A stretch of DNA of 64,000 nucleotides from assembly GCA_963663165.1 (NCBI GenBank), contig OY760175.1, forward strand, positions 160,001 to 224,000, read 5' to 3'. Below are positions 50,421 through 64,000 of this stretch, in pieces (the stretch's first letter is position 1; each line of letters starts with the position of its first letter). A model generated the notes under the pieces. That model did no database searches, was not told the DNA's origin, and saw only the letters and a list, made by a program, of their open reading frames with translations. The stretch comes from an uncultured Desulfospira sp. (GTDB taxonomy: Bacteria > Desulfobacterota > Desulfobacteria > Desulfobacterales > Desulfobacteraceae). The translations under genes were made by a program, and so were the position numbers.

Positions 50421-50497
50421 GCGCCCGTAGCTCAGCTGGATAGAGTACTTGACTACGAATCAAGGGGTCGGACGTTCGAATCGTCTCGGGCGCGCCA
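50421..50497 (+). tRNA. tRNA-Arg(ACG)
   Basis: GCGCCCG...CGGGCGC-GCCA; anticodon arm CTTGA-CTACGAA-TCAAG; GTTCGAATC. Confidence 0.97.
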
Positions 50498-50554
50498 TAA
50501 ACGATAAGGGTTTTCAGGTTTTGGCTTGAAAACCTTTTTTGTTTTCAAACATGA

Positions 50555-51005: not shown

Positions 51006-51344
51006 TTACGAGTTCAACACCTGCCGGATATTGGAAGCCACGATTTTAAAATCCCAATCTTCCTGGCCTTCCTCCATCTGCCTGGCCAGACCATCCAGGA
51101 ACCTTTCAAGCCGCTCTGTCCGGGCTAATTCTGATTTGTTTATCTGTTTTTTCAGTGAAGCTACGACATCATCCATACCAACGACCATATCATCCAAGAA
51201 TCCAGCTAAAGCCCTCAAACAATCAAAATTTTGAATTGCATCCATATTTTTGGAATGGAATAAGACGGTTGATAGGAAATACATTTTTTGATTTATGCCG
51301 ACGATGTCATCATATGTGGTCCTTAGGGGATTAGATGTTTTCAT
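51006..51344 (-). CDS. Hypothetical protein
   Basis: ORF overlapping the upstream stop, RBS GGAGG. Confidence 0.6.
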   Translation of the reverse strand: MKTSNPLRTTYDDIVGINQKMYFLSTVLFHSKNMDAIQNFDCLRALAGFLDDMVVGMDDVVASLKKQINKSELARTERLERFLDGLARQMEEGQEDWDFKIVASNIRQVLNS

Positions 51345-51747
51345 ACTGCACCTCCAATCTTTCAACCTGAGCCCGGAAATCCGCAATCAGGTCCCTTAAT
51401 ATGTCATGGCTTGCCTTTTCCGGCAGAGAGGCAAAGAAACCCTTGCACAGGTCCTTGTATCCCTTGGCTTTCATTTTCAACTTTGGGTATTCACCAAGTT
51501 GTTGTCTCCACTGCTCATTGGAAATATCGATCAGATATTCAATCTCCTCACAAGCGTCTTTGAGCGAACCTGACAGGGTAAGAATATTGTCTTGATTAAT
51601 GACGTTGCCAGTTACAAGCTCCTCTTTGTCCAGGCACCAAAGCATGTCAGCCAGCAATTTTATCTTTCCTATTGGGTGGCATACTTCGGCAAAGATATCA
51701 TAGTGGTTCAACAGCTCTTCTTTTGTGAAATCGGCTTTAATTTGCAT
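51331..51747 (-). CDS. Hypothetical protein
   Basis: ORF coupled to both neighbours, RBS AGGGGG. Confidence 0.6.
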   Translation of the reverse strand: MQIKADFTKEELLNHYDIFAEVCHPIGKIKLLADMLWCLDKEELVTGNVINQDNILTLSGSLKDACEEIEYLIDISNEQWRQQLGEYPKLKMKAKGYKDLCKGFFASLPEKASHDILRDLIADFRAQVERLEVQYENI

Positions 51748-52327
51748 GACTGACACCCCCTTGTTCACTTTTCCATTTTTCTATCTCTTGGGGGAAGGCA
51801 TACCAAAATTTTCGGCCAGGGATCTTGAAAGCCGGCAGGCCTTTTTTATTAACAAAAAGCTTTATCTTATTATATTCAATACCAGCAGCCTTTGTTATTT
51901 CCATTGTGCCTCTAAGAATGGTCATTTCTTCGGGTGGCGAGTTTGGGAACGGCATTCTGTTTGCTTCCACTTCCTTTTTCCGGAAATCGAAGGTAATGAC
52001 TTTTGCATAAGGGATCTCATCAAGCTTTTTTTCTTGACGTTGTATTTGATCTCTTAGCATTTCTGCTAATTCATCCCTGGTTTTCTTAAAAAACCCCTGG
52101 GGAACTCCTGCACAAGATTCTATCCGATTACCACTGAGATCTGTTCCCGAAAATTCCAAGCCAAGAACACAAGAATGCATTGAAATTTTCATCAATTCTG
52201 ACAAGAGATTTTTAGCAGAATGGATATCTTTTTCAAGTTTCTTTGCCTCTTCTCTACGTTCATATGTTCTAAGAGGAAGTTGTTCTCTAATCTTATATCT
52301 ATATTTTTCCATGCCATAAGCGCTCAT
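51737..52327 (-). CDS. Hypothetical protein with a C-terminal excisionase-like HTH
   Basis: G..EI....G......V..KGLPAFK....W.A....IEKW pattern. Confidence 0.55.
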   Translation of the reverse strand: MSAYGMEKYRYKIREQLPLRTYERREEAKKLEKDIHSAKNLLSELMKISMHSCVLGLEFSGTDLSGNRIESCAGVPQGFFKKTRDELAEMLRDQIQRQEKKLDEIPYAKVITFDFRKKEVEANRMPFPNSPPEEMTILRGTMEITKAAGIEYNKIKLFVNKKGLPAFKIPGRKFWYAFPQEIEKWKSEQGGVSHAN

Positions 52328-52722
52328 TATTCCCTCCTTTCTGCAATTATTTTCAATTCCTTCATTACTTCAGGGGAAACGACCGGATGCTGGTCAGGAA
52401 AGCACTCATCATACTTCCGTTCAATGAAGCGCTTGGCGTTCTCGTAATAAAATGGGTGATCGTCTCTTAATATTCTCATTAAAGGAACAATGTAATATTC
52501 CGGATTCTCCCCTCTGGCTTTTTTTCTCTGGTACAACACTTCAGCATAAATTGATTTGATCACTTCTTGATCGTGTCCCATATCTGATAGTTTTATCAGC
52601 CAAAGGTAATCATTTTCTGTTTCTTCCTTGGGGTGTTTTTCTTCTGGAAATGTTGATTGTTTTGAAAAAGGGATGATCTCAGTTTGATTGACAGGTGTTC
52701 GTGGTTTCTGACAAGATTTCAT
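52327..52722 (-). CDS. Hypothetical protein, first gene after the C4-like RNA
   Basis: RBS GGAGG before ATG 52722. Confidence 0.6.
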   Translation of the reverse strand: MKSCQKPRTPVNQTEIIPFSKQSTFPEEKHPKEETENDYLWLIKLSDMGHDQEVIKSIYAEVLYQRKKARGENPEYYIVPLMRILRDDHPFYYENAKRFIERKYDECFPDQHPVVSPEVMKELKIIAERRE

Positions 52723-52744
52723 TTGTACCTCCAAAAACAAAATG

Positions 52745-52810
52745 GGGGTTAGGTGTCTCAAGGTTTCAGAAAAACCTTTGCGGTCCTTTCGGATTGCGCC
52801 ACCATACCCC
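52745..52810 (-). ncRNA. Putative C4/CI-like antisense RNA (three-way junction)
   Basis: Outer stem GGGGT..GGTG/CACC..ACCCC; TCC-GAAA-GGA hairpin; AAGGTTT-TTCTG-AAACCTT hairpin; complementary target at 52872-52886. Confidence 0.6.
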
Positions 52811-52893
52811 AATTATATTTTGAGTACTGCATATACAAATAAATATACCGGATTAACGGCCCGGTTCACCGTTCTGAATTTTGAGAGGTCTCC

Positions 52894-52978: not shown

Positions 52979-53194
52979 TCATTCATTAACACCAAACCGC
53001 CGCTCCAGCCGGGGAAAAACCTTCAACAGCAGCCGGGTACATTTCAGGGCCTCTTCCCGGATCACTGCCGGGTCTTTCACTTGGCCGCTGTTATCTTCCA
53101 TCTGGGGGCAACCGGAGCAATCAAATCCGGCGCTGTCTTCAATGGCGGCCCGGGTCAGGCAATCGTTATACTGAGAACACCATATGTTTCTCAT
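52979..53194 (-). CDS. Small Cys-rich hypothetical protein
   Basis: RN..C..Y..CL..AA......FDC..C. Confidence 0.55.
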   Translation of the reverse strand: MRNIWCSQYNDCLTRAAIEDSAGFDCSGCPQMEDNSGQVKDPAVIREEALKCTRLLLKVFPRLERRFGVNE

Positions 53195-53203
53195 TGGCCC
53201 CCA

Positions 53204-54580
53204 TCAGGCCGCCAACCTGCTCAAAATTCCCTGGTTTTCATATGTATAATTACGGCTCTTGGCTGATGCCGCAAAGACAGGGTTCAACCCATCCACAAAG
53301 TCAAAAATTACAGCCTTATCTTTTCCGGGTGCTGGCCGGAGTGCCCGGCCTATGTACTGGATCAGGCGGCCTGAAAATTTAACCGGCGTTGCCAGGAACA
53401 CAGTGGATATTCCCGGCAGGTCAAACCCTTCTCCGATAAGCTGGCCTGTGGCAATCAGGTAACGGCATTCATCATTCTGCAGGGCCTTGATTATCCGTTC
53501 CCGGTCACTTTTGGTGGTGGCTCCGGTCAATACCTCAGCCTGAATTCCATGGGCATCCTCCAGGATATTTTTAAGCACCTGGCAGTGTTCTTTTCTGTCA
53601 GACAGAACCAGGCTGACACCATGGCCGTTATTCTCGGCAACCGTCCTGCAAATCAACCGGTTCCTGGTTGAATCTTCGGTCAGTTCTGACAGGGCCTTAG
53701 AATAGAACTCGCTGGCATCCACAAAGGGAGAAAATCCGGTCTTAATCCATTTGACCTCTGCCGGGCAAAGGTTGCCGGCCTGGACAAGGTCCTGCTTATC
53801 AATCCTGCCGGCAACGTCCCCGACGTGCCAAAAGATGACCTTTGAAAGTCCGTCACGTCTCCAGGGGGTAGCCGTGAGCCCAAGCAAGTACTTACAGTCA
53901 AAGGCGGTCACGGCATCGGTAAAGGTCCTGCTCGAAACTCTGTGGCATTCATCCACAACCAGGTGGCCGATATGGGGAACAACATCATCCACCCGTTTGA
54001 AAAGGGTCTGAACCGTGGCAACGGTGATCCGGTCCCCGATGGTGAACTTACCGCTGCCGATTATGCCGATTTCATCTCGGGGGATTCCCAGGAACTGTTC
54101 AATCCGGTCAATCCACTGGTTCAAAAGTTCCTTGGTATGAACGATGATAAGCGCCGGCTGTTTTCGCTCAGCAACCAGGTAAAGGCCCATGACGGTTTTC
54201 CCGGCACCGGTCCCGGCTTCAAGTAACCCTGAGTCACGGGAAAGAATCCCATCAACCGCCTGCTGTTGCAATGGCCGGAGCTTTCCCTGAAACTGGAATT
54301 CAGCCGGAGCTAGGATCCTACGTTCGTCAATTATCCGGATATCTTCACCCATTCGGGTACATAAAAAATAAAGTTGCTTTGCTGCCCCTCTGGGACAGGC
54401 CAGGAAGTCCGGAGCCTCATGATAAAATTTCAACTCCCGATCAATTCCCCAGGTGGCCCGGCCCATTTTTTTTGCTTCGGCATATTTAGGATTGGGCATG
54501 GTCAAACGCCGTTTGACTGCTTCCCGGGTTGCCGGATTCAGGCCGGTTAAAATTGCCTTGCTGTTCAGTTTAAATATCAT
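53204..54580 (-). CDS. Superfamily 2 DEAD/DEAH-box helicase (ResIII/UvsW-like)
   Basis: LRPLQ, AGTGAGKT, DECH, GLTATP, EGFD, QYIGRALR. Confidence 0.92.
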   Translation of the reverse strand: MIFKLNSKAILTGLNPATREAVKRRLTMPNPKYAEAKKMGRATWGIDRELKFYHEAPDFLACPRGAAKQLYFLCTRMGEDIRIIDERRILAPAEFQFQGKLRPLQQQAVDGILSRDSGLLEAGTGAGKTVMGLYLVAERKQPALIIVHTKELLNQWIDRIEQFLGIPRDEIGIIGSGKFTIGDRITVATVQTLFKRVDDVVPHIGHLVVDECHRVSSRTFTDAVTAFDCKYLLGLTATPWRRDGLSKVIFWHVGDVAGRIDKQDLVQAGNLCPAEVKWIKTGFSPFVDASEFYSKALSELTEDSTRNRLICRTVAENNGHGVSLVLSDRKEHCQVLKNILEDAHGIQAEVLTGATTKSDRERIIKALQNDECRYLIATGQLIGEGFDLPGISTVFLATPVKFSGRLIQYIGRALRPAPGKDKAVIFDFVDGLNPVFAASAKSRNYTYENQGILSRLAA

Positions 54581-54584
54581 GCTA

Positions 54585-57446
54585 TCAATCCCCTACTCCC
54601 AACAAAGAAAGCCCCTCAGCATTGGCTGTGACCTGGGCCATTTCCATAATTTCCTGGAAAATCATCTCCAAGGCCGGGGCCAGGGCAGATGATTCAACCT
54701 GTATCCCTATCGGCTCCCCGCTTTCGATCCGGGCGGCCTGGGCATTGGCAAGACGGGTTTCGGCAGCCACAAGGCTTTCCTGCATGTTGATTTCTTTTTC
54801 CAGGAGATCGTAAAGCTCATAGAAATGAGCCCCGCCGCCCTCTGACAGGCTCGAAAACATAGTGCTGACCGTATCGGATGTTGCTTCAATTGCCACCCCA
54901 AGGCTTTCCATGGTGGCCTTGACTTGTTCAGTTTCAGCTTCAAGTGAGGCAATGTTCAGCTTTGCATCCCATTCAATAGCGGTGTTCATGGTGTCAGTTA
55001 GATTGCCGAACATATTTTCAATTGTCTCAAGTTTTGCCTTATCAAGCTCGGTCTGAATCTCTAACGTTTTTGCCGGTTCTAAAGTTTCCTGAATATCTTT
55101 AGTGGCCTTGGTTGCTGATGTCATATCCGCCTCCACTGTATAGGAAACGGTTGTGCCGTCCTCAAGCTCAACTTCCAAGGTCTGCCAAGCCTTTTTGGCC
55201 TCTTCTATGGGATCAGTTTTTACGGCGATATCAACGATTTTTTCTCCCGGGATTTCTTCAAGCATGGAAATGGCGGCCTTGAGTTCTCCGGCATCTATCA
55301 ATGATTGAACCAGGATCTGTTTTTCTTCGGGAAGATCTTGCAGGCCATTGTAAAGGGTTCCCAGATCCCCCATGGATACGTTGGCAAAAACATCAACCTT
55401 TTTTTCATCCGGGATATCGGCCAGGGTCCCGTTTATTGAGTTGAGATCCGAGTTCAGGCCGTCAATCCCGGTCATTTCAATCTTGGATTCTTTTTTTTCC
55501 GGGATCTTATCTAATTTTTTGGGAATGGCTTCGATCTTTTCGACCGACTCAGCAGCGGTGTCATTCAGTTCAGTGAAATTGACCTTCATGCCGGTGAGTT
55601 TTTCCGTTGCGGCTGATGCGGCATCGTACATTGCCTTTTTAGTCTCAGTTTTCCAGCTTTGCACCTTAGTGATATTCTCTTCGATATCATCCGAGAATGC
55701 ACCAAACATGAACGTCTTTGAAAACGTGTTCCCGGCAAGCATGAGATCCTCAACGATTTCAAGGAATGCAAGCTTTAGCGTGTTCCAGCCAAGTTTCATT
55801 GTTTCCAAGGCCCCTGAAATGGTATTGATAACCACATTGAACACGGGGGCAAGGTTATCCGCAGACTCTGACATTGCAAGAATAATTGCCGTGAATTTTG
55901 GGCCGAACTCAACAACAGCTTTAGAGAGTGCAAGGATTTGCCCGGCGGCTTCCTGGGTCTCTGTTTTAAGCTCGTTGAAACTGCTGATTGACCCTTTGAT
56001 GGATTCCCAAAAAGGTTTGAACCCGTCCACCATCCCGGCAGTGGTGTTCAACAGACTTGATATCGTGTTGAGAACGCCTTGAAGTGCTTCTTTCAAACCT
56101 TCCGAAGTAGTCAAATCAACATCGCTGAACAGGCCTCTAACTGAATCTTCCAGGTTTTCAAAGGAGTCAATCAGGTCCTTAAACTCAATTCCTTCAAAAG
56201 CTTCCGGCAGGTTCTTAGCGATTGCTTTTAAATCAGCCCCAAGCTGATTCCCAAATTCATTGATTTTCTCGAAAATTTCATCAAAAGTGCCGTCCTTCAC
56301 CATCTGCTGTAAAGCGAGAACAATTGAATTCCCGCCGTTAATGACGTTTTTAGAGGCATTTTCAAATTCGGTACCGATCAGGGTAGCCAGGTTTTCCAGC
56401 CTGGCCTTGAGTACGTCAACAGCATGTTCTGCTGACCCAAAATAACTTTCAAGTTCCTTGGCTGCTGACCCGGCAGCGCCCATGGCCGTTTCCGTTACCT
56501 CAAGGGTTTTATTCATTGAGGAAAAGGCCAGGGCCATCTTTGCCGCCTGGTCTTTTCCGACAAGTTGCTGGGCGTAATACGTTTTTTCAGTGTCGGTCAG
56601 GTTTTGGAAAACCGCCTGAACCTCATAGAAGATATCCCGGCCGGACTTCATCTGGCCGTTTACGTCGGTCTGCGATATCCCGAGTTCGGCCAGGGCCTGG
56701 GTAACCCGGGGCGTGTCTGATGTTAAATTGAGAAGGCCTGTTCTAAATGCCCGGCTCACCTCATCCCCAGAACGGAAAACCTCAATTACCGGTGTGAGAA
56801 TGCCGGCTGTTTCCTCAAATGAAAAACCCATCTGTGAGGCAATCGGGGAGAGATCGGCCATGCCTGTGGCAAGCTCTTCCACATTGGTGGCGTAGTTGTT
56901 GGAAGTTTCATTCAAGATATCAAGCAGCCGGTTCGCTTCTGATGCAGGAGAACCAAAGCCCTTCAAAGTGGATACCAACAGGGCACTTGCTTCTGATGCG
57001 TCAACGCCGCCCACGATAACAAGGTCCATGGCATTTTTGGCAAGCTGCATGGCTTCCTCAACATCATACCCGGCCTGTTTGAAATTGGCTGTGGAATTGA
57101 GAATATCTGATGCTGATTGCCCATACTGGTTTGACAGGTCGATAGCGGCATCTTGGGCTATTGCCAGGCTTTCCGGGGTTTCGTCCCCAAGGACTTTGTT
57201 TAGTTCAACCGCTGCGCTTTCAAACTGCATGGCTTTGGTGAAAGCATATGCCAGGCCACCAACCGCCATAGCTGACAAGGCGGCATCCGCTTTAATGACC
57301 CCATCGGCTATATCCGCAAAGGGATCAGCCACGGAACCCACTATGCTTTCAAAACTACCCAGGGTCCCGGACAAGGAGTTTATGGTCTGGCTGACCTGAT
57401 CGTCCCCCTGGAACAATATTTTTACGGTTTTCTCAAGATCGCCCAT
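54585..57446 (-). CDS. Phage tail tape measure protein (TP901-family core)
   Basis: 953 aa, helical; A..FE.....NK, A....Q.G....EA, N.YATNVEELA.G, G.....AFRT.L..L pattern. Confidence 0.85.
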   Translation of the reverse strand: MGDLEKTVKILFQGDDQVSQTINSLSGTLGSFESIVGSVADPFADIADGVIKADAALSAMAVGGLAYAFTKAMQFESAAVELNKVLGDETPESLAIAQDAAIDLSNQYGQSASDILNSTANFKQAGYDVEEAMQLAKNAMDLVIVGGVDASEASALLVSTLKGFGSPASEANRLLDILNETSNNYATNVEELATGMADLSPIASQMGFSFEETAGILTPVIEVFRSGDEVSRAFRTGLLNLTSDTPRVTQALAELGISQTDVNGQMKSGRDIFYEVQAVFQNLTDTEKTYYAQQLVGKDQAAKMALAFSSMNKTLEVTETAMGAAGSAAKELESYFGSAEHAVDVLKARLENLATLIGTEFENASKNVINGGNSIVLALQQMVKDGTFDEIFEKINEFGNQLGADLKAIAKNLPEAFEGIEFKDLIDSFENLEDSVRGLFSDVDLTTSEGLKEALQGVLNTISSLLNTTAGMVDGFKPFWESIKGSISSFNELKTETQEAAGQILALSKAVVEFGPKFTAIILAMSESADNLAPVFNVVINTISGALETMKLGWNTLKLAFLEIVEDLMLAGNTFSKTFMFGAFSDDIEENITKVQSWKTETKKAMYDAASAATEKLTGMKVNFTELNDTAAESVEKIEAIPKKLDKIPEKKESKIEMTGIDGLNSDLNSINGTLADIPDEKKVDVFANVSMGDLGTLYNGLQDLPEEKQILVQSLIDAGELKAAISMLEEIPGEKIVDIAVKTDPIEEAKKAWQTLEVELEDGTTVSYTVEADMTSATKATKDIQETLEPAKTLEIQTELDKAKLETIENMFGNLTDTMNTAIEWDAKLNIASLEAETEQVKATMESLGVAIEATSDTVSTMFSSLSEGGGAHFYELYDLLEKEINMQESLVAAETRLANAQAARIESGEPIGIQVESSALAPALEMIFQEIMEMAQVTANAEGLSLLGVGD

Positions 57447-57456
57447 GTTTCACCTC

Positions 57457-57789
57457 TCAGTTCAATGTTTTTTGGGAAGGGGCCGGAGCGCCCCCGGTTG
57501 ATACAATTCGTTCGTGGATTTCTGAAATCCAATCCCGACAGATTTCTTTGATTTCCGGGGGAGCATCTTTTTTATCAATTTCGGCAAGGAACCTTTCTGA
57601 CACTTTTTGCATATGCTCCCCGATAGGCGGAAACGCTTTCATAAGGGCACCGTGTACCCATGCTTCAAAATGGGCGTTGGCTTCAAATTTTGCCCTCAAG
57701 ATTGCCAAGTCTCGGGCCTGGAGAGCGATCGCGGCCCTCAGTCCTTGTATCTGCTTTTCAAGCCGTTCTATTTTTTCTGAATCTGACAT
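57457..57789 (-). CDS. Hypothetical protein immediately upstream of the tape measure gene
   Basis: 110-aa ORF, RBS AAGGA. Confidence 0.6.
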   Translation of the reverse strand: MSDSEKIERLEKQIQGLRAAIALQARDLAILRAKFEANAHFEAWVHGALMKAFPPIGEHMQKVSERFLAEIDKKDAPPEIKEICRDWISEIHERIVSTGGAPAPSQKTLN

Positions 57790-58693: not shown

Positions 58694-58891
58694 ATCAAAA
58701 AATCCTTTTATTCCTGTTCTTGTTGTGTGCTGGCTGACCAAACGGCCAGCCAGCATGAAAGGAGACCTGGGGAACATTCTATCCCCAGGCGACTCATAGA
58801 AATGGACTAAGCCAGCAATGCTCCAAAGAGCTGACATGTAGCCCCCGCCTTATTATCTTAAAGGGGGCAGGCCGGTGTGCCCCCATTGTGG

Positions 58892-59488
58892 TTAACCGCC
58901 AAGTTTATCAATGGCCATTCGTAGCTCACGCTGCCGATTCTGCAGGGCGTCAATTTCAGCAGGCAAGCTGATTTTTCCTTCTCGGGCGGCTTTAAATGCA
59001 CCGCTAAAACACGCCCTCTGCTCGTCCGACAGTCTGTTAAAAAGAGCTGGTAAATTGAAAACGATTCCGATCTCACCAAAAACTTGAGTAACTTGAGCGG
59101 CGGCCTCACCGAAGTTTTTCAAGGCATCAGGGGCCAGGGTTTCCTTTTGTTCACGAAGGGCCGCTATTTTTTCCCCGATTTCCTTGAGTTCGGAATCGTT
59201 TTCAAGATTCACGGTGCCGGTATGGATCCTTTCCAATTTAACCAGGGCAGCCCCAATGGTGGGGATACGATCTTCCAGGGACAGCCTTTCAGATTCCATG
59301 GTTTTGATTTCCTTGGTCGCAGGTTTATCCAAGTTTTCAATTTTTGCGACTTCAATCTCATTTTCGATTGTATTGAGCTTCTCTTCGGCCTCCATTTTGG
59401 CAGCGGAAAGGGCATCGATTTCTTCCTGGATCTCAATAGAGGTGAAATCCCCTTCGCCTGACAAAATTTGTTTTAATCGGTCACTCAT
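58892..59488 (-). CDS. Coiled-coil hypothetical protein
   Basis: Heptad-rich E/K/L sequence, RBS AAGGAG. Confidence 0.7.
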   Translation of the reverse strand: MSDRLKQILSGEGDFTSIEIQEEIDALSAAKMEAEEKLNTIENEIEVAKIENLDKPATKEIKTMESERLSLEDRIPTIGAALVKLERIHTGTVNLENDSELKEIGEKIAALREQKETLAPDALKNFGEAAAQVTQVFGEIGIVFNLPALFNRLSDEQRACFSGAFKAAREGKISLPAEIDALQNRQRELRMAIDKLGG

Positions 59489-59777: not shown

Positions 59778-60269
59778 TCATGAGTGCCGTTTAACCTCGT
59801 CATCGGACAAAGTAAGCTCAGAATCGGCAATAATATTCCGGCATTCAGCAATTGATTTTTTCACGAGCGTTATCTGGTCCCCGGTGATCTCCGGCCAGTT
59901 CCTTTTCATGACCAAGGGAATGGATTCAAGAATAGGAATGATCTGGTTTGCGGATTTTTCCAAGGCATAGGTAAGGAGTGAGACAGGGGCAATCTTTTGT
60001 TCTTCAAGGTCATTTTGCCGTTTCTTTTCCCGGTGCTTTTCTTTTTCCAGAAGGGCTGAATAGTCACGATCGTCAAGCTCTTCGGAGTCACACTCCCGGA
60101 CCTGGCCGGAAGAGACTCCCCTCAAATATTTGATATATGCTATGCGGCAAGCGTCAAGATCATACCCGCCCGGCCCTTTGCTGGAAGGGAGTATCCCGTC
60201 TTTAACAAGACCCCTTACCCGGCGGGGGGTCAGGTCCAAGTGGTCTGCTATTTCTTGTTGGGTTGCCAT
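59778..60269 (-). CDS. Terminase small subunit, lambda Nu1-like
   Basis: wHTH TQQEIADHLDLTPRRV..L...G, YDL..C..AYI.YLR, then a coiled coil. Confidence 0.8.
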   Translation of the reverse strand: MATQQEIADHLDLTPRRVRGLVKDGILPSSKGPGGYDLDACRIAYIKYLRGVSSGQVRECDSEELDDRDYSALLEKEKHREKKRQNDLEEQKIAPVSLLTYALEKSANQIIPILESIPLVMKRNWPEITGDQITLVKKSIAECRNIIADSELTLSDDEVKRHS

Positions 60270-60499: not shown

Positions 60500-60590
60500 C
60501 CGGAAACGGAAACGGATTTTTTGAGGGTCGTAATTAGAAAAATATCGCGCCTTGCCGACCCGTAATAAATTAGGCCCTTGGAAGGACCCA
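60500..60590 (-). other. Lambda-like cos packaging site (cosQ-cosN-R3-like)
   Basis: Minus strand GGGTCCT, 17 nt, TTACGGGTCGGCAAGGCGCG, then CCGTTTCCGTTTCCGG; upstream of terS. Confidence 0.7.
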
Positions 60591-60621: not shown

Positions 60622-60813
60622 TTACTCTCCTTTCCGATTGCCATTTTCCAGGAATTTTCTCAAAACCAAAAATTTTCTGAAAACTTCAATTTCATTTTTA
60701 ATCCGGAGCAACTCAATATCCAGCCGTTCAAGTCCACCTCCACAAGGAAGAGAATTAACCCTGTCTTTTAAATTTGTGATCCGGCCGTTGATTTCTGCTG
60801 TGAGTTTGTCCAT
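60622..60813 (-). CDS. Small hypothetical protein
   Basis: 63 aa from MDKLTA, RBS GAGG. Confidence 0.5.
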   Translation of the reverse strand: MDKLTAEINGRITNLKDRVNSLPCGGGLERLDIELLRIKNEIEVFRKFLVLRKFLENGNRKGE

Positions 60814-60843
60814 ATTCGCCCTCAAATATTTAATTAAAATTTG

Positions 60844-60955
60844 CCTCCCCAAATGACCTCCCCATTTCCCCACCCCCCTAAAGGGGGGTTGGGGTAAAAT
60901 GGGGAATTGTCCTCATTCTTCCCCATTGGGGCTATTTGGGGTATTTTGGGGAGCC
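60844..60955. repeat. CCCCA/TGGGG short-repeat cluster around a palindrome; putative replication origin
   Basis: CCCCCC-TAAA-GGGGGG hairpin flanked by CCCCAAAT/CCCCATTT and ATTTGGGG/AATGGGG units at the helicase 3' end. Confidence 0.55.
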
Positions 60956-62445
60956 ATTTCAAAGTAAGGAGTATTGACTTTTATACCTTCTAACTCACTT
61001 AAATAATTGAAATATCTATTCCAATGTTTTAACGGCATCCCCTTCGAAACAGCTTCGTCTTTGATATCCTGAATCAACACTTTTGCCCCATTTGGGGAGA
61101 AACCACTTTTTTCAAGATTTCGACGCTGTTTTTCAAAAAGATCCATCAAAATGCCCTGGCAAATTGCCTGCCATTTTCCCTGCTTTTTGACGGGTGTTTT
61201 TTTAACAGGTGCCTGATATCCGATCGGGTCTAAAATGCCGCCGGTGATCTCCTGGCCCTCTTCATCTTTGATACCAAGTTCAACCGACCGAATTTTGAAA
61301 GCCATGGGTGCAGGCGGTTCAAAATCTTTCATCTTTGTATTGGTCATCCGCACCACGCCTACATCATCTTTTTCAAGCCGGTATTCTGCATCCAGGGCAC
61401 CTTTTAAAGCCATGGCTCCCCGGCCCCTGGATTTATCCCCATGGCCGCTATGATGGATCAAAACGATAGCACAACGATACTTTGTCCTGATTGCATCCAA
61501 GGAAGCGATAAACGATGTCATTTCCTGGGTGCTGTTCTCATCACCAGGGCCAAAGTTACGGGCAAGTGTATCAATGAATATGGCCGCCGGTTTTTCTCTG
61601 GTACCATCAACGGCAGCCTCGACAATAGGAATAGATGCCGGATCACAAAAACTTGCCGGCGCCGTGGAAACAAACAGGGAGACAGACTCAAAGGAAACCT
61701 GGTGCCGAATCTGCCATGCCTGAAACCGTCTTCTTAGGCCATTTTGACCCTCTCCCGCGATATACACTACCGGCCCGGCGTTGACTCCCGTGCCATGGAA
61801 ATCTGTCCCTGTGGCGATACAGCAGGCCAAATCGACCCCTATGAAAGTTTTTCCACATCCCGGGTCACCAAACCACTGAGAAAGAGAGTCTCTCTCAAGG
61901 AGACCAGTTACAAGCCAATCAGGAGTTTTGCATTCAAGCTTCGAAATTGGGGTAAGCCGAAATAGTGTCTCTGAAGACAGTGAAAGGTTGTTTGTTTTTT
62001 CCCGGATTAAAGCCAATAAATCATCGACAGATTGCCCTGATCCCGCCCCACTGACTAAACATGACCCAAGGGCTGCAATCGCCCTTTTCACAGCACAATT
62101 TTTGATGATTTCGGCATGCCCGGCAGGATTCAGGGAGATGGGTGCCCTGTCTGCTATCTTTGCAAGCAATGAAGCGCCACCAGCCTTATCAAGCTCTCCG
62201 GATTCCTTGAGCTGATTCGCCACTGTGACCAGATCCACCCCGGCACCCTTTGATTTAAGCGTTAGGATTGCCTTAAATATCAACTGGTGTGAAGTCTGGT
62301 AAAAATGGCCCGGTTCCAAGCTGTTTACAATGCCGTCCAAGGCCTTGACACCCATGACAAAAATCGCGGCCAATAATCTATCTTCGGCGTCCAGGTCCTG
62401 GGGCGGTTGGATGATCGGGTCAGGATTATAGGCCAGCATATTCAT
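60913..62445 (-). CDS. DnaB N-terminal domain fused to an AAA_25/RepA-like helicase
   Basis: PPQDLDAE..LL, FY...HQLIF.AI, VDLVTV; GDPGCGKT, YIAGEG, IDTLAR, DENS, IHHSG, RG..AL. Confidence 0.85.
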   Translation of the reverse strand: MNMLAYNPDPIIQPPQDLDAEDRLLAAIFVMGVKALDGIVNSLEPGHFYQTSHQLIFKAILTLKSKGAGVDLVTVANQLKESGELDKAGGASLLAKIADRAPISLNPAGHAEIIKNCAVKRAIAALGSCLVSGAGSGQSVDDLLALIREKTNNLSLSSETLFRLTPISKLECKTPDWLVTGLLERDSLSQWFGDPGCGKTFIGVDLACCIATGTDFHGTGVNAGPVVYIAGEGQNGLRRRFQAWQIRHQVSFESVSLFVSTAPASFCDPASIPIVEAAVDGTREKPAAIFIDTLARNFGPGDENSTQEMTSFIASLDAIRTKYRCAIVLIHHSGHGDKSRGRGAMALKGALDAEYRLEKDDVGVVRMTNTKMKDFEPPAPMAFKIRSVELGIKDEEGQEITGGILDPIGYQAPVKKTPVKKQGKWQAICQGILMDLFEKQRRNLEKSGFSPNGAKVLIQDIKDEAVSKGMPLKHWNRYFNYLSELEGIKVNTPYFEMAPQNTPNSPNGEE

Positions 62446-63080
62446 TTTGCCCCCCCGATATTGGGACTTAATATCTGCGGCATCGGATTTGTCTTTGGCG
62501 AGCGATCGACTAACCTATCATACAGCCTTGCTGCCTGGCTCGATCGTTCCATTATTCGGGTCGGATAGTGGGGTAGTCGGTGTCCTGTTATGGCAAGGTA
62601 TCGGCCATGTTCGAAAATCTTAACCGGCCCATTGCTCCGTCCTTCGGGGGGGAGCGATCCCTTGATAAGGGTTCTTAATCCGGTTCCGCTCGGGCTTATC
62701 TCCGAGTAGGAAAACAGTCTGTTCAAGATTTCCAAAGCCCATGATTCGATGGCACCTGTTTGTGGATCTCGGCAGTCGTTTAAATCGAAAACAACAAATG
62801 GATCTTTAAGGGCCAGGGCGAAACTCAACCCGGTAAAAGCGAGTTTCTGACAATAAATGAAAACATCACAGACCTGTTTAAAGGTTCCCAAGGGATGAGG
62901 GATGAGGGCATCGACATTCCTTCCAAGGTACGAATATGGAATTTCTGTCCATTTTTTATCCTGTTGCTTAGCCTTCCACAGAATCCACTGGTGGTGAAAC
63001 CTGAGTTCTTCGGGGATGTTTTCCAAGACAGGACATAGCCAGGCGGGCTCCATAACTTCTTTCTGGCCTGGCATCAGCAT
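62442..63080 (-). CDS. Primase-polymerase (prim-pol)-like domain with degenerate catalytic motifs
   Basis: IPEEL...QW..W, DPFV.FDL.DC, SYSEISPSGTGL, RY..ITG. Confidence 0.75.
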   Translation of the reverse strand: MLMPGQKEVMEPAWLCPVLENIPEELRFHHQWILWKAKQQDKKWTEIPYSYLGRNVDALIPHPLGTFKQVCDVFIYCQKLAFTGLSFALALKDPFVVFDLNDCRDPQTGAIESWALEILNRLFSYSEISPSGTGLRTLIKGSLPPEGRSNGPVKIFEHGRYLAITGHRLPHYPTRIMERSSQAARLYDRLVDRSPKTNPMPQILSPNIGGAK

Positions 63081-63175: not shown

Positions 63176-63218
63176 CTCTGTTCCCCCCATGCGCCGGTTG
63201 CCGCCGGCGTTTTGTTTT
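63135..63218 (+). ncRNA. Putative short antisense RNA unit (promoter + about 50 nt + terminator)
   Basis: TTGACA-17 nt-TATATT at 63135-63163; CGCCGG-TTGCCG-CCGGCG-TTTTGTTTT at 63192-63218. Confidence 0.55.
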
Positions 63219-63433
63219 TACATAAACGCAACGGGACCGCAGCCGTTGGAATCAAGGTTTTGCATATAACCTCTACGGAAAGGTAGACCATGTTTGTCTG
63301 CGAGATCGTTCCAACGGGATCGCCAGATTATGGGGGGGAGTTCTTCGATAACTTCTGTCCAGTCGGTTTCCGGGAACCGGCTTTCCAAAAATTTTCTTAC
63401 CGCTGATTTGGGATAATGAATTGCTAACGCCAT
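63218..63433 (-). CDS. Excisionase/AlpA-like small protein, possibly C-terminally short
   Basis: LPPII.R...G.....Y..NLDS.G.GP motif. Confidence 0.5.
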   Translation of the reverse strand: MALAIHYPKSAVRKFLESRFPETDWTEVIEELPPIIWRSRWNDLADKHGLPFRRGYMQNLDSNGCGPVAFM

Positions 63434-63608
63434 AAAAAAACCTCCTGTACCTTGCACTTGTGAAAGAAAATCAACCACAATGGCAGGATATAGGAGGTTT
63501 ATGATTATAAGGAGTGTCTAAGATTTTAAAAATTTATTTTGTCAGTGACAAAAGTATAGGTGTTTTTATTTGTCACCTTTGATTGGGTGCAATCCCATTT
63601 AGTCTAAC

Positions 63609-63785
63609 GTAAAAACCCTGGCCCTCTGGGCCAGGTCAGAGTGCAGTGGCTTTGCCATCTGTACGGCTCAATGCTACTCAATACTCGAAGTTGTCCCCAC
63701 AACGAGGAGTAAGGAGTAACAAATGAGCCGATTTAAAAAGCTATCACAGACAATATGGTGTTGCCAATATCATATTGTCTGGGTC
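63609..63785 (+). mobile_element. Left end of an IS200/IS605-family element
   Basis: Subterminal hairpin CCTGGCCC-TCT-GGGCCAGG (63617-63635), RBS AAGGAG and tnpA start. Confidence 0.75.
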
Positions 63786-63800
63786 AGTGCTGACGCATGA
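63723..63800 (+). pseudogene. tnpA: IS200/IS605 TnpA N-terminus, interrupted
   Basis: MSRFKKLSQTIWCCQYHIVWV, then unrelated SADA-stop instead of the expected PKYR. Confidence 0.75.
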
Positions 63801-64000
63801 ATAAAAAAAGGTTGGCTTTAGTCGATCTAACCACTCCCTTTGGGGGGAGATCCAGCCTTTTTTAATTCAAAAAGGCAGTCCTTCAGACACTGACTATGGC
63901 CGAAACGAAAGACGGTCCTTCGGTCCGAACATAGCGTTCCCACCTCTCTGCTTGGGAGAGTGTTTTCGATTACCCGTCCGTCGTTGCCGTCATACTAATC

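Follow-up and report, generated by a model that had tools for sequence, protein, structure and literature searches.

Phage satellites that carry a gene for a tape measure protein (TMP) are already published, namely the PLEs (elements akin to phage-inducible chromosomal islands) of Vibrio cholerae, the EPIPs and some phage-inducible chromosomal islands that form capsids (cf-PICIs). According to PMC12987554, the TMPs of PLEs (PLE1, PLE4 and PLE11, with ICP1 as helper) were shown by experiment to become part of chimeric tails and to be required for transfer, and PLE11 pairs its own TMP with an inhibitor of the helper TMP. By experiment a satellite TMP has been shown in the Vibrio PLEs only, and in EPIPs it is described; what a satellite gains from a TMP of its own calls for further work, according to PMC12987554. 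In lambda-like phages, TMP segments set the injection route and the sensitivity to defences (passages of PMC13190303). Here we analyse a 64,000-nucleotide stretch of DNA from an uncultured Desulfospira sp. (the window; contig OY760175.1, positions 160,001 to 224,000), in which an integrated island carries a lone TMP gene. On balance, and judging from sequence, we favour the reading that this island is a PICI-like, capsid-less, tRNA-integrated satellite that would swap its own TMP into the tails of a helper phage.

The island resembles each of the described systems in part. The PLEs are satellites that, like the island, carry a TMP without a full tail operon. In the passages available, however, the PLE TMP is 20% identical to that of its helper, whereas the island TMP is 58-63% identical overall to that of its candidate helper and 100% identical in one tract; the PLE helper is virulent and contractile-tailed, whereas the candidate helper of the island is a temperate lambda-like phage. 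Unlike that of the PLEs, the island backbone is of a cos-type, PICI-like kind, and its closest relatives are lambda-like prophages of Desulfobacteraceae rather than Vibrio ICP1-like phages. The EPIP of Mycolicibacterium aichiense, in the passages of PMC12822802 that describe it, is likewise a small satellite with terS, a scaffold gene, a TMP, no tail genes and a prophage as helper. It differs in being 11 kb long, in having a serine integrase and listed head-tail adaptor and stopper genes, in sharing about 8.5% DNA coverage with its helper and in inducing that helper, whereas the integrase of the island is a tyrosine integrase, neither an adaptor nor a stopper gene was found on it, and it has three DNA blocks in common with its candidate helper.

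PICIs of the cos type in Gram-negative bacteria (EcCICFT073 and Rpp; passages of PMC6092414, PMC6739421 and PMC9026076) share with the island a terminal integrase, attachment-site (att) repeats, primase and helicase genes, a helper-like cosQ/cosN ahead of a TerS-like gene, and a size of about a third of the helper. Within those passages RppC is 25% identical to lambda TerS over the DNA-binding domain and the cosB of these PICIs is a different one, whereas the island TerS is 77% identical to that of the phage and the cos-terS spacer is shared as well; the EcCICFT073/Rpp passages describe no TMP. AlpA was found in a related island (G550) and was not detected in this copy. The cf-PICIs are PICI-type elements with a predicted tmp gene that have their own capsids (passages of PMC12987554), unlike the island, in which Pfam, PHROG and custom profiles reveal no capsid, portal or terL. 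No paper on such islands in Desulfobacterota was found by a literature search that did not reach most subscription papers. As far as that literature was searched, what is new is a form from Desulfobacterota that is of the cos type, lacks a capsid and has no recognisable chaperone, together with its matched candidate helper, the mosaic TMP, its repeated capture and the existence of two size classes.

A tape measure gene without tail genes

The original prediction, made from the letters of the DNA, held that a full-length TMP stands here without tail tube or tail tip genes, and scans with Pfam, PHROG and custom profiles bear this out. The open reading frame (ORF) encodes 953 aa, begins with ATG and contains zero internal stops. 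Residues 98-297 match the whole PF10145 model (model positions 1-201, E = 7e-42) with 144 bits versus a curated cut-off of 33.2, and the protein matches 27 PHROG families, most of them labelled tape measure protein. The 77 complete phage relatives range from 779 to 1036 aa with a median of 897, and the description "full length" holds for the island protein. PF10145 is matched once in the genome, a single contig of 6.74 Mb that is 96.7% complete. Neither Pfam nor PHROG scans of 17 ORFs in the window and of five further island ORFs beyond it turned up a gene for a tail tube, a tail tip, a portal, a capsid or TerL. Profiles built from related phages likewise recovered no tube, chaperone, tip, portal, capsid or terL from the island or the rest of the genome; nine genome matches to one profile, labelled terL15, were taken as non-terminase and disregarded. 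An ORF of 110 aa (ORF110) stops 10 bp upstream of the TMP gene, which has GAGGTG shortly before its start, and a superfamily 2 (SF2) helicase gene begins 4 bp past its stop.

The gene belongs to an island of 22.0 kb at tRNA-Arg(ACG), bounded by exact 67-bp direct repeats that lie 21,977 bp apart. In a genome of the same genus (G513) this site is empty: the tRNA lies side by side with tadA and with the downstream gene, and the flanking proteins are 92-97% identical. Without its insertion sequences (IS) the island core measures 16.1 kb, or 16.7 kb counting the IS200 part. All island genes lie on one strand (-). From the integrase end they run as a helix-turn-helix (HTH) gene, a HicB-like gene, HicA, ORF242, the IS block, ORF86, a primase, a DnaB-N/AAA helicase and ORF83; then the cos-like site, terS, a zinc ribbon, a coiled-coil protein, a doubled S49 C-terminal domain and a cement-like protein; and finally ORF110, the TMP, the SF2 helicase and five small ORFs. 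This layout is, by gene content and order, PICI-like, and PICI hallmarks are present in the form of att repeats, a terminal integrase, an empty site in a relative, an own primase and an incomplete set of virion genes. A promoter scan remained at chance level (14 vs 16.5).

Related islands and the mosaic tape measure protein

To place the gene among its relatives, we searched viral, genome and metagenome collections together with 161 family genomes, which yielded 188 TMP-family ORFs, duplicates included. An alignment that began at the N-terminus and took in residue 340 covered 156 of these, of which 101 were left at 90% identity; L125 was removed as a copy of L006, and more distant TMPs were excluded. 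Flanking genes were assessed in the 70 relatives whose upstream flank reached at least 1.4 kb and whose downstream flank reached at least 0.5 kb, the other 31 being short-flanked. All three flanking tail-gene families are present in 66 of the 70 non-redundant relatives and none of them in four, namely this island, L006, L130 and G550, which makes the lone state an unusual one. The labels tube, chaperone and tip are positional because an attempt to name these families found no Pfam, PHROG or PDB match; the cultured phage PS3 carries the same gene families around its annotated TMP. The short-flanked L147 and L162 lack the upstream chaperone and were treated in the tree as probable islands, L162 on 538 bp alone. 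Lone TMPs stand on the G550, L130 and L006 islands, and the G440 island has a lone TMP of another family; the five complete lone TMPs, this one included, measure 719-953 aa.

A quick tree, with 30 rows and built on the first 360 residues, requires five changes to account for the six lone TMPs and rejects a single clade for them (p-AU 3.6e-6). Four of the five lone-TMP groups neighbour a different phage TMP at 70-81% identity, and G550 does so at 64%. The tree itself gives no direction; with 66 phage and four island contexts, capture by the islands is the simpler reading. A phylum sample returned one distant TMP match among 400 other genomes. Separately, the locus L015:8341-18436 and about 130 related loci represent a widespread tail module of uncultured phages that pairs with several head types; its genes at the tube, chaperone and tip positions match nothing named in Pfam, PHROG or PDB, and a C93 domain of transglutaminase-like type is present in one of the tip genes.

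The islands themselves form a family. Relatives of the coiled-coil gene occur in 8 of the 161 family genomes, its own included, and six islands are delimited by att repeats; on the contigs with matches in G408, G462 and G733 the island is not delimitable, and a search of the viral contig collection with the coiled-coil alignment gave no match. The delimited islands with a lone TMP measure about 16.1 kb (this core), 16.27 kb (G550, 13-bp repeat) and 16.40 kb (G440), and each of the three encodes either a prohead protease or the C-terminal domain of one. The L130 island (16.29 kb, tRNA-Glu) has a lone TMP, and a protease and terS were looked for there and none detected; the L006 island, mapped at its tRNA-Cys end, carries terS and terL. 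TMP-bearing islands lie near one third, and TMP-less islands near one sixth, of 47.9 kb (47.94/3 = 15.98), although seven mapped islands are too few for size statistics. The coiled-coil protein, ORF83, ORF145 and the AAA and SF2 helicases constitute a backbone common to the small islands and not to the G513, G505, G442 and L016 prophage DNA tested.

Several further features of these relatives were recorded. L006:5502-9541 holds terS and a full GpA-type terL, with a zinc-metallopeptidase-like ORF two genes ahead of the TMP. A region that by gene layout resembles a transposable prophage of the Mu type (G550:C148:69866-79916) lies directly past the far att of the G550 island. Besides a D5 primase, the G440 island encodes a replication initiator paired with a loader, both of phage type (G440:C1:834421-835829), and a Doc-like toxin adjoins its integrase. 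Some 1.2 kb beyond the G471 island lies one more, partial copy of its att.

Comparison of the N- and C-terminal regions with a candidate helper, as the original prediction had proposed, shows that both match the TMP of the G513 prophage. Residues ~150-330 and 800-951 track that protein, within an overall identity of 58-63%. Over residues 200-308 the 109 codons encode an identical protein, with 10 synonymous and 0 replacement changes; identity is 86-98% at 801-950 and 16-34% at 451-750. Residues ~450-625 are nearer other phage TMPs, at most 55%. The L130 TMP exhibits the same mosaic pattern with phage L008, the L006 TMP follows L039/L044 to residue 625 and not at the C-terminus, and the G550 TMP is without a close partner. 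A role in shortening tails was rejected as the purpose of these proteins, TMP lengths going both ways (953 vs 882; 895 vs 905; 842 vs 792).

The proposed dN/dS comparison found the TMP intact and under purifying selection, with omega of about 0.04-0.14 by parsimony counts. On the island branch omega is about 0.14 (residues 1-330), 0.04 (170-310) and 0.08 (790-950), similar to the phage branch, and neutrality of the island branch is rejected (p 5e-9 and 2e-5). The pair L130/L147, an island against a probable island on a 2.6-kb contig, escapes most of the pre-capture time in phages and gives an omega of 0.11 over 359 codons (dS 0.86, dN 0.10).

The small gene upstream fared differently. ORF110 had been put forward as a possible tail chaperone or inhibitor, and the chaperone reading finds no support, since no likeness to the G or T parts of the phages' chaperone was detectable: hmmsearch --max and hhalign against G/T profiles were negative, the best HH probability being 0.3%. 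Among 1.84 billion representatives no homologue was found but one marginal match, the ESM Atlas returned matches at 0.85 only, and PADLOC gave no match. Its single-sequence model consists of three helices (pLDDT 71, pTM 0.38). The structural comparison with chaperones that had been suggested yielded generic coiled-coil matches only (Foldseek against BFVD, 0 matches at E<=0.001; VIA-align, coiled coils only, Z<=7.2), from a model so generic that it does not speak against a chaperone fold. In G550, L006, L130 and L147, too, the TMP comes after a small ORF, here of 103-147 aa; these ORFs are unrelated between groups and unrelated to ORF110, save for a marginal match in L006 (E 0.004), and the G440 lone TMP comes after the coiled-coil gene. 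ORF110 is a candidate tail inhibitor or adaptor, and either role would fit a small gene that varies at this position.

Candidate helper, proposed mechanism and alternatives

The candidate helper is a 47.9-kb lambda-like prophage in the same-genus genome G513, whose attB for the island is empty. It encodes a GpA-type terL, a portal, an S49 protease, a lambda-type decoration protein, capsid E and a tail operon, and its tail is likely non-contractile, since no second large gene lies between terminator and chaperone. Between its terL and head genes, a stretch of about 5 kb that includes a helicase-like gene (G513:C2:101812-106804) runs in the reverse orientation. The island and this prophage share three DNA blocks and no others: the cos-like site with terS (795 nt, 76%), about 1 kb of the TMP 5' part (80%, with an adjacent 107-nt piece at 72%), and 482 nt of the TMP 3' part (85%). 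The island core of 16.1-16.7 kb amounts to about one third of the prophage.

By sequence and position, the predicted cos resembles that of the candidate helper and is placed next to the TerS gene. Its layout follows the ends of the lambda record, with a spacer of 17 nt vs 18 nt, and contains a 7-bp box that we take to be cosQ. The 12-bp putative cohesive end agrees at 12 of 12 positions with the G505 prophage and at 11 of 12 with G513. A loose form of the motif occurs 12 times in the genome, so that the evidence for cos is the position about 290 nt before terS together with the match to the prophages. Comparable cos-like sites precede terS in G471, G550 and L006. Two public runs, X3 and X6, which come from two samples of a single study, cover the island at depths of about 10-16 and 1-13, and the listed non-IS island pieces show no changes. 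In both, a second TMP lies on the island TMP at a depth of 141-268, and its sequence is that of the G513 prophage at 26 of 26 variants listed and at 4 of 4 loose ends that were tested.

We propose that growth of a lambda-like, long-tailed helper would cause the island to excise and replicate. The helper TerL would then package the island at its predicted cos, either in small heads or as trimers, because the core is one third of the helper genome. The island TMP would be built into helper tails and would rely on the helper chaperone and tip, which would explain why the TMP ends track the helper. Recombination would keep those ends matched so that the helper chaperone, tip and terminator accept the protein, the island having no recognisable chaperone. 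At 953 vs 882 aa, satellite tails are predicted to be about 7-11 nm longer than G513-type tails (scale 95 aa = 10-15 nm, passages of PMC12987554). The different middle of the TMP would be the likely pay-off, through escape from blocks directed at the helper TMP, whether a tail inhibitor encoded by the island, as PLE11 has one, or defences against entry, or through another injection partner; this is the weakest step, drawn by analogy, and we offer it tentatively and with some doubt.

A number of observations count against this proposal. The IS (~5.9 kb) bring the island to 22 kb, interrupt the region before ORF86 and probably truncate ORF242, and with these insertions and this size the copy may be crippled or inactive. 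PLEs encode a chaperone, and some also a baseplate hub (passages of PMC12987554), whereas no chaperone was detected on the island. Three mapped relatives do without a TMP. A helper prophage was not found in the island's own genome by searches with PF10145 and phage-family profiles, and X3 and X6, as one study and possibly the source of G513, make the co-occurrence not independent of G513. For the scaffold-like and cement-like genes, the matches lie in phages whose head type differs from that of G513, so that G513 may not be the helper, and that part may fall to a relative of mosaic make-up. Complete phages also differ most in the TMP middle (L039 vs L044, 40% at 526-625), and a variable middle is therefore not satellite-specific. 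Finally, the branch omega may include time spent in phages before capture.

The original prediction had left open whether the island swaps its TMP into helper tails or poisons their assembly. The satellite-like island, the intact TMP and its matched ends stand; between the two uses, as far as sequence can tell, full length with conserved ends favours the swap. We regard as improbable that the TMP is a decoy or poison that enters the helper tail pathway by its matched ends, ties up the chaperone or tip and cuts phage yield without joining infectious satellite particles. A competitor of this kind would not need 953 residues, yet all five complete lone TMPs are long; and although matched ends with a mismatched middle, together with the lack of a detected chaperone, would also fit such a protein, and tail-blocking defences are common on satellites (Tai, PMC11364771; Rta, PMC12987554; available passages), the island needs functional tails for its own spread, and selection on its branch equals that on the phage branch.

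Slightly less probable again is that the TMP is recent passenger cargo from recombination with the helper, kept mainly for packageable size and without a tail role. Five separate origins, TMP-less relatives at about half the size, and a near-identical tract indicative of recent exchange would all accord with cargo. The divergence of L130 and L147 to dS 0.86 with dN 0.10 argues otherwise; filler would not remain a full-length open frame in five islands, and a middle at most 55% identical to any phage found shows that the gene is not a fresh whole phage copy. That the region is a prophage decayed by head and tail gene deletions, with the TMP as a leftover, is very unlikely: the order cos-terS, scaffold end-cement and TMP does mirror a phage late operon, IS insertions are present and L006 retains terL, but both att copies are intact, the backbone is common to other small islands and not to the prophage DNA tested, the sizes of four mapped islands come together at 16.1-16.4 kb, the phage class matched by the head-type genes is not the one matched by the tail-type genes, and profile searches detected no remnants of lost genes beside the TMP.

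Returning to the swap of an island TMP into helper tails, a broader scheme is conceivable, although as a whole we consider it unlikely. One Desulfobacterota satellite family would have two packaging classes, in which islands of ~8 kb use the helper particle unchanged and islands of ~16 kb remodel head (scaffold/protease, cement) and tail. The 16-kb class would have taken its TMP at least five times from current helpers, would re-match the ends by recombination, and would hold the foreign middle as its own injection module, which escapes TMP-directed blocks while working with helper chaperones in place of any of its own.

Gene map and implications

The features of the island are collected below. 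The cement-like protein is 42-52% identical to the N-terminal half of a pre-capsid gene in one class of related phages. The ORF with the S49 domains, the longest form of which starts at 58837, matches the G550 island protease with E 5e-8. The zinc-ribbon protein presumably resembles Ogr/Delta activators, to which it gave no database match. Identification of the coiled-coil protein as Psu was no more than a lead (ESM Atlas 0.90 to PF07455), with negative Pfam and PDB scans, and was set aside. ORF86 has no family match in Pfam or PHROG, and the G550 island has PF05930 (AlpA) at the corresponding position. Within the IS block a 2.78-kb IS interrupts an IS200 element, after which comes a 2.46-kb IS; the two larger IS are multi-copy in the genome, each with a DruA/DUF4338-like passenger gene ahead of the transposase. 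A chromosomal SF2 helicase (C1:660707-662095), 63% identical to that of the island, lies amid housekeeping genes, and the region near 657-662 kb with S49 and helicase genes was rejected as a second island because these are housekeeping genes.

Table 1. Features of the island and of three related islands without a tape measure gene; positions refer to the window unless another sequence is named.
Feature	Position	Strand	Basis or remark
tRNA-Arg(ACG), integration target	50421..50497	+	ARAGORN
att repeat, 67 bp, covers 3' part of tRNA-Arg	50451..50517	+	exact direct repeat
ORF126, weak homologue in G550 island	51006..51386	-	E 0.0025
ORF145, homologue in G550 island	51331..51768	-	33% over 84 aa, E 6e-8
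ORF196, C-terminal HTH resembling small head-region gene of related phages	51737..52327	-	43% over 56 aa to G442 prophage gene
ORF161, weak homologue in G440 island	52327..52812	-	E 0.001
ORF71, Cys-rich	52979..53194	-	no Pfam/PHROG family
SF2 (ResIII/DEAD) helicase	53204..54580	-	53% to L006 island helicase, 63% to chromosomal paralogue
Tape measure protein, 953 aa, mosaic	54585..57446	-	PF10145, PHROG, alignments
ORF110, orphan, three predicted helices	57457..57789	-	sequence and model searches
Capsid cement/decoration-like protein, 158 aa	57880..58356	-	PF09956 E 8e-5, slightly below cut-off
Tandem pair of S49 prohead protease C-terminal (likely scaffold) domain, 98 aa	58397..58693	-	S49 profile E 4.8e-5
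Coiled-coil protein, 198 aa, island-family marker	58892..59488	-	searches of family genomes
Zinc-ribbon protein, 74 aa	59511..59735	-	weak zinc-ribbon matches
Small terminase, Nu1 type	59778..60269	-	76-77% identity with TerS of the G513 prophage
Predicted cos: 7-bp cosQ-like box, 17-bp spacer, TTACG, 12-bp putative cohesive end	60549..60589	-	
ORF83 (likely 63 aa), homologue at same place in G550 island	60622..60873	-	E 3e-7
DnaB-N and AAA_25 helicase	60913..62445	-	40% to island L006
Primase-polymerase domain	62442..63080	-	PHROG primase families, E 2.5e-32
ORF86	63218..63478	-	at AlpA/excisionase-like position of relatives
IS block, ~5.9 kb	63610..64000 onward; genome C1:223610-229497		multi-copy blastn, PF01797
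ORF242	genome C1:229480-230208	-	stop codon inside IS end, likely truncated
HicA, HicB-like and HTH genes	genome C1:230318-231010	-	PF07927
Tyrosine integrase	genome C1:231018-232382	-	PF00589 E 4e-31
Second att copy	genome C1:232428-232494, beyond window		adjoins tyrosine integrase
TMP-less island with integrase, terS-like and coiled-coil genes	G471:C10:22715-31343		8.63 kb, tRNA-Lys
TMP-less island with integrase, terS-like and coiled-coil genes	G526:C117:18032-25569		7.54 kb, tRNA-Cys
TMP-less island with integrase, terS-like and coiled-coil genes	G456:C362:13207-21354		8.15 kb, tRNA-Arg

The satellite and candidate-helper TMPs, identical in one tract, close at the ends and unlike in the middle, constitute a natural experiment. 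The captures are repeated and traceable and relatives without a TMP exist, so that comparison of these islands would map the TMP segments that must match helper assembly parts versus those that are free to differ. Domain-swap tests are thereby made direct, and the strategy of carrying a TMP would extend to cos-type, capsid-less islands of sulfate reducers.

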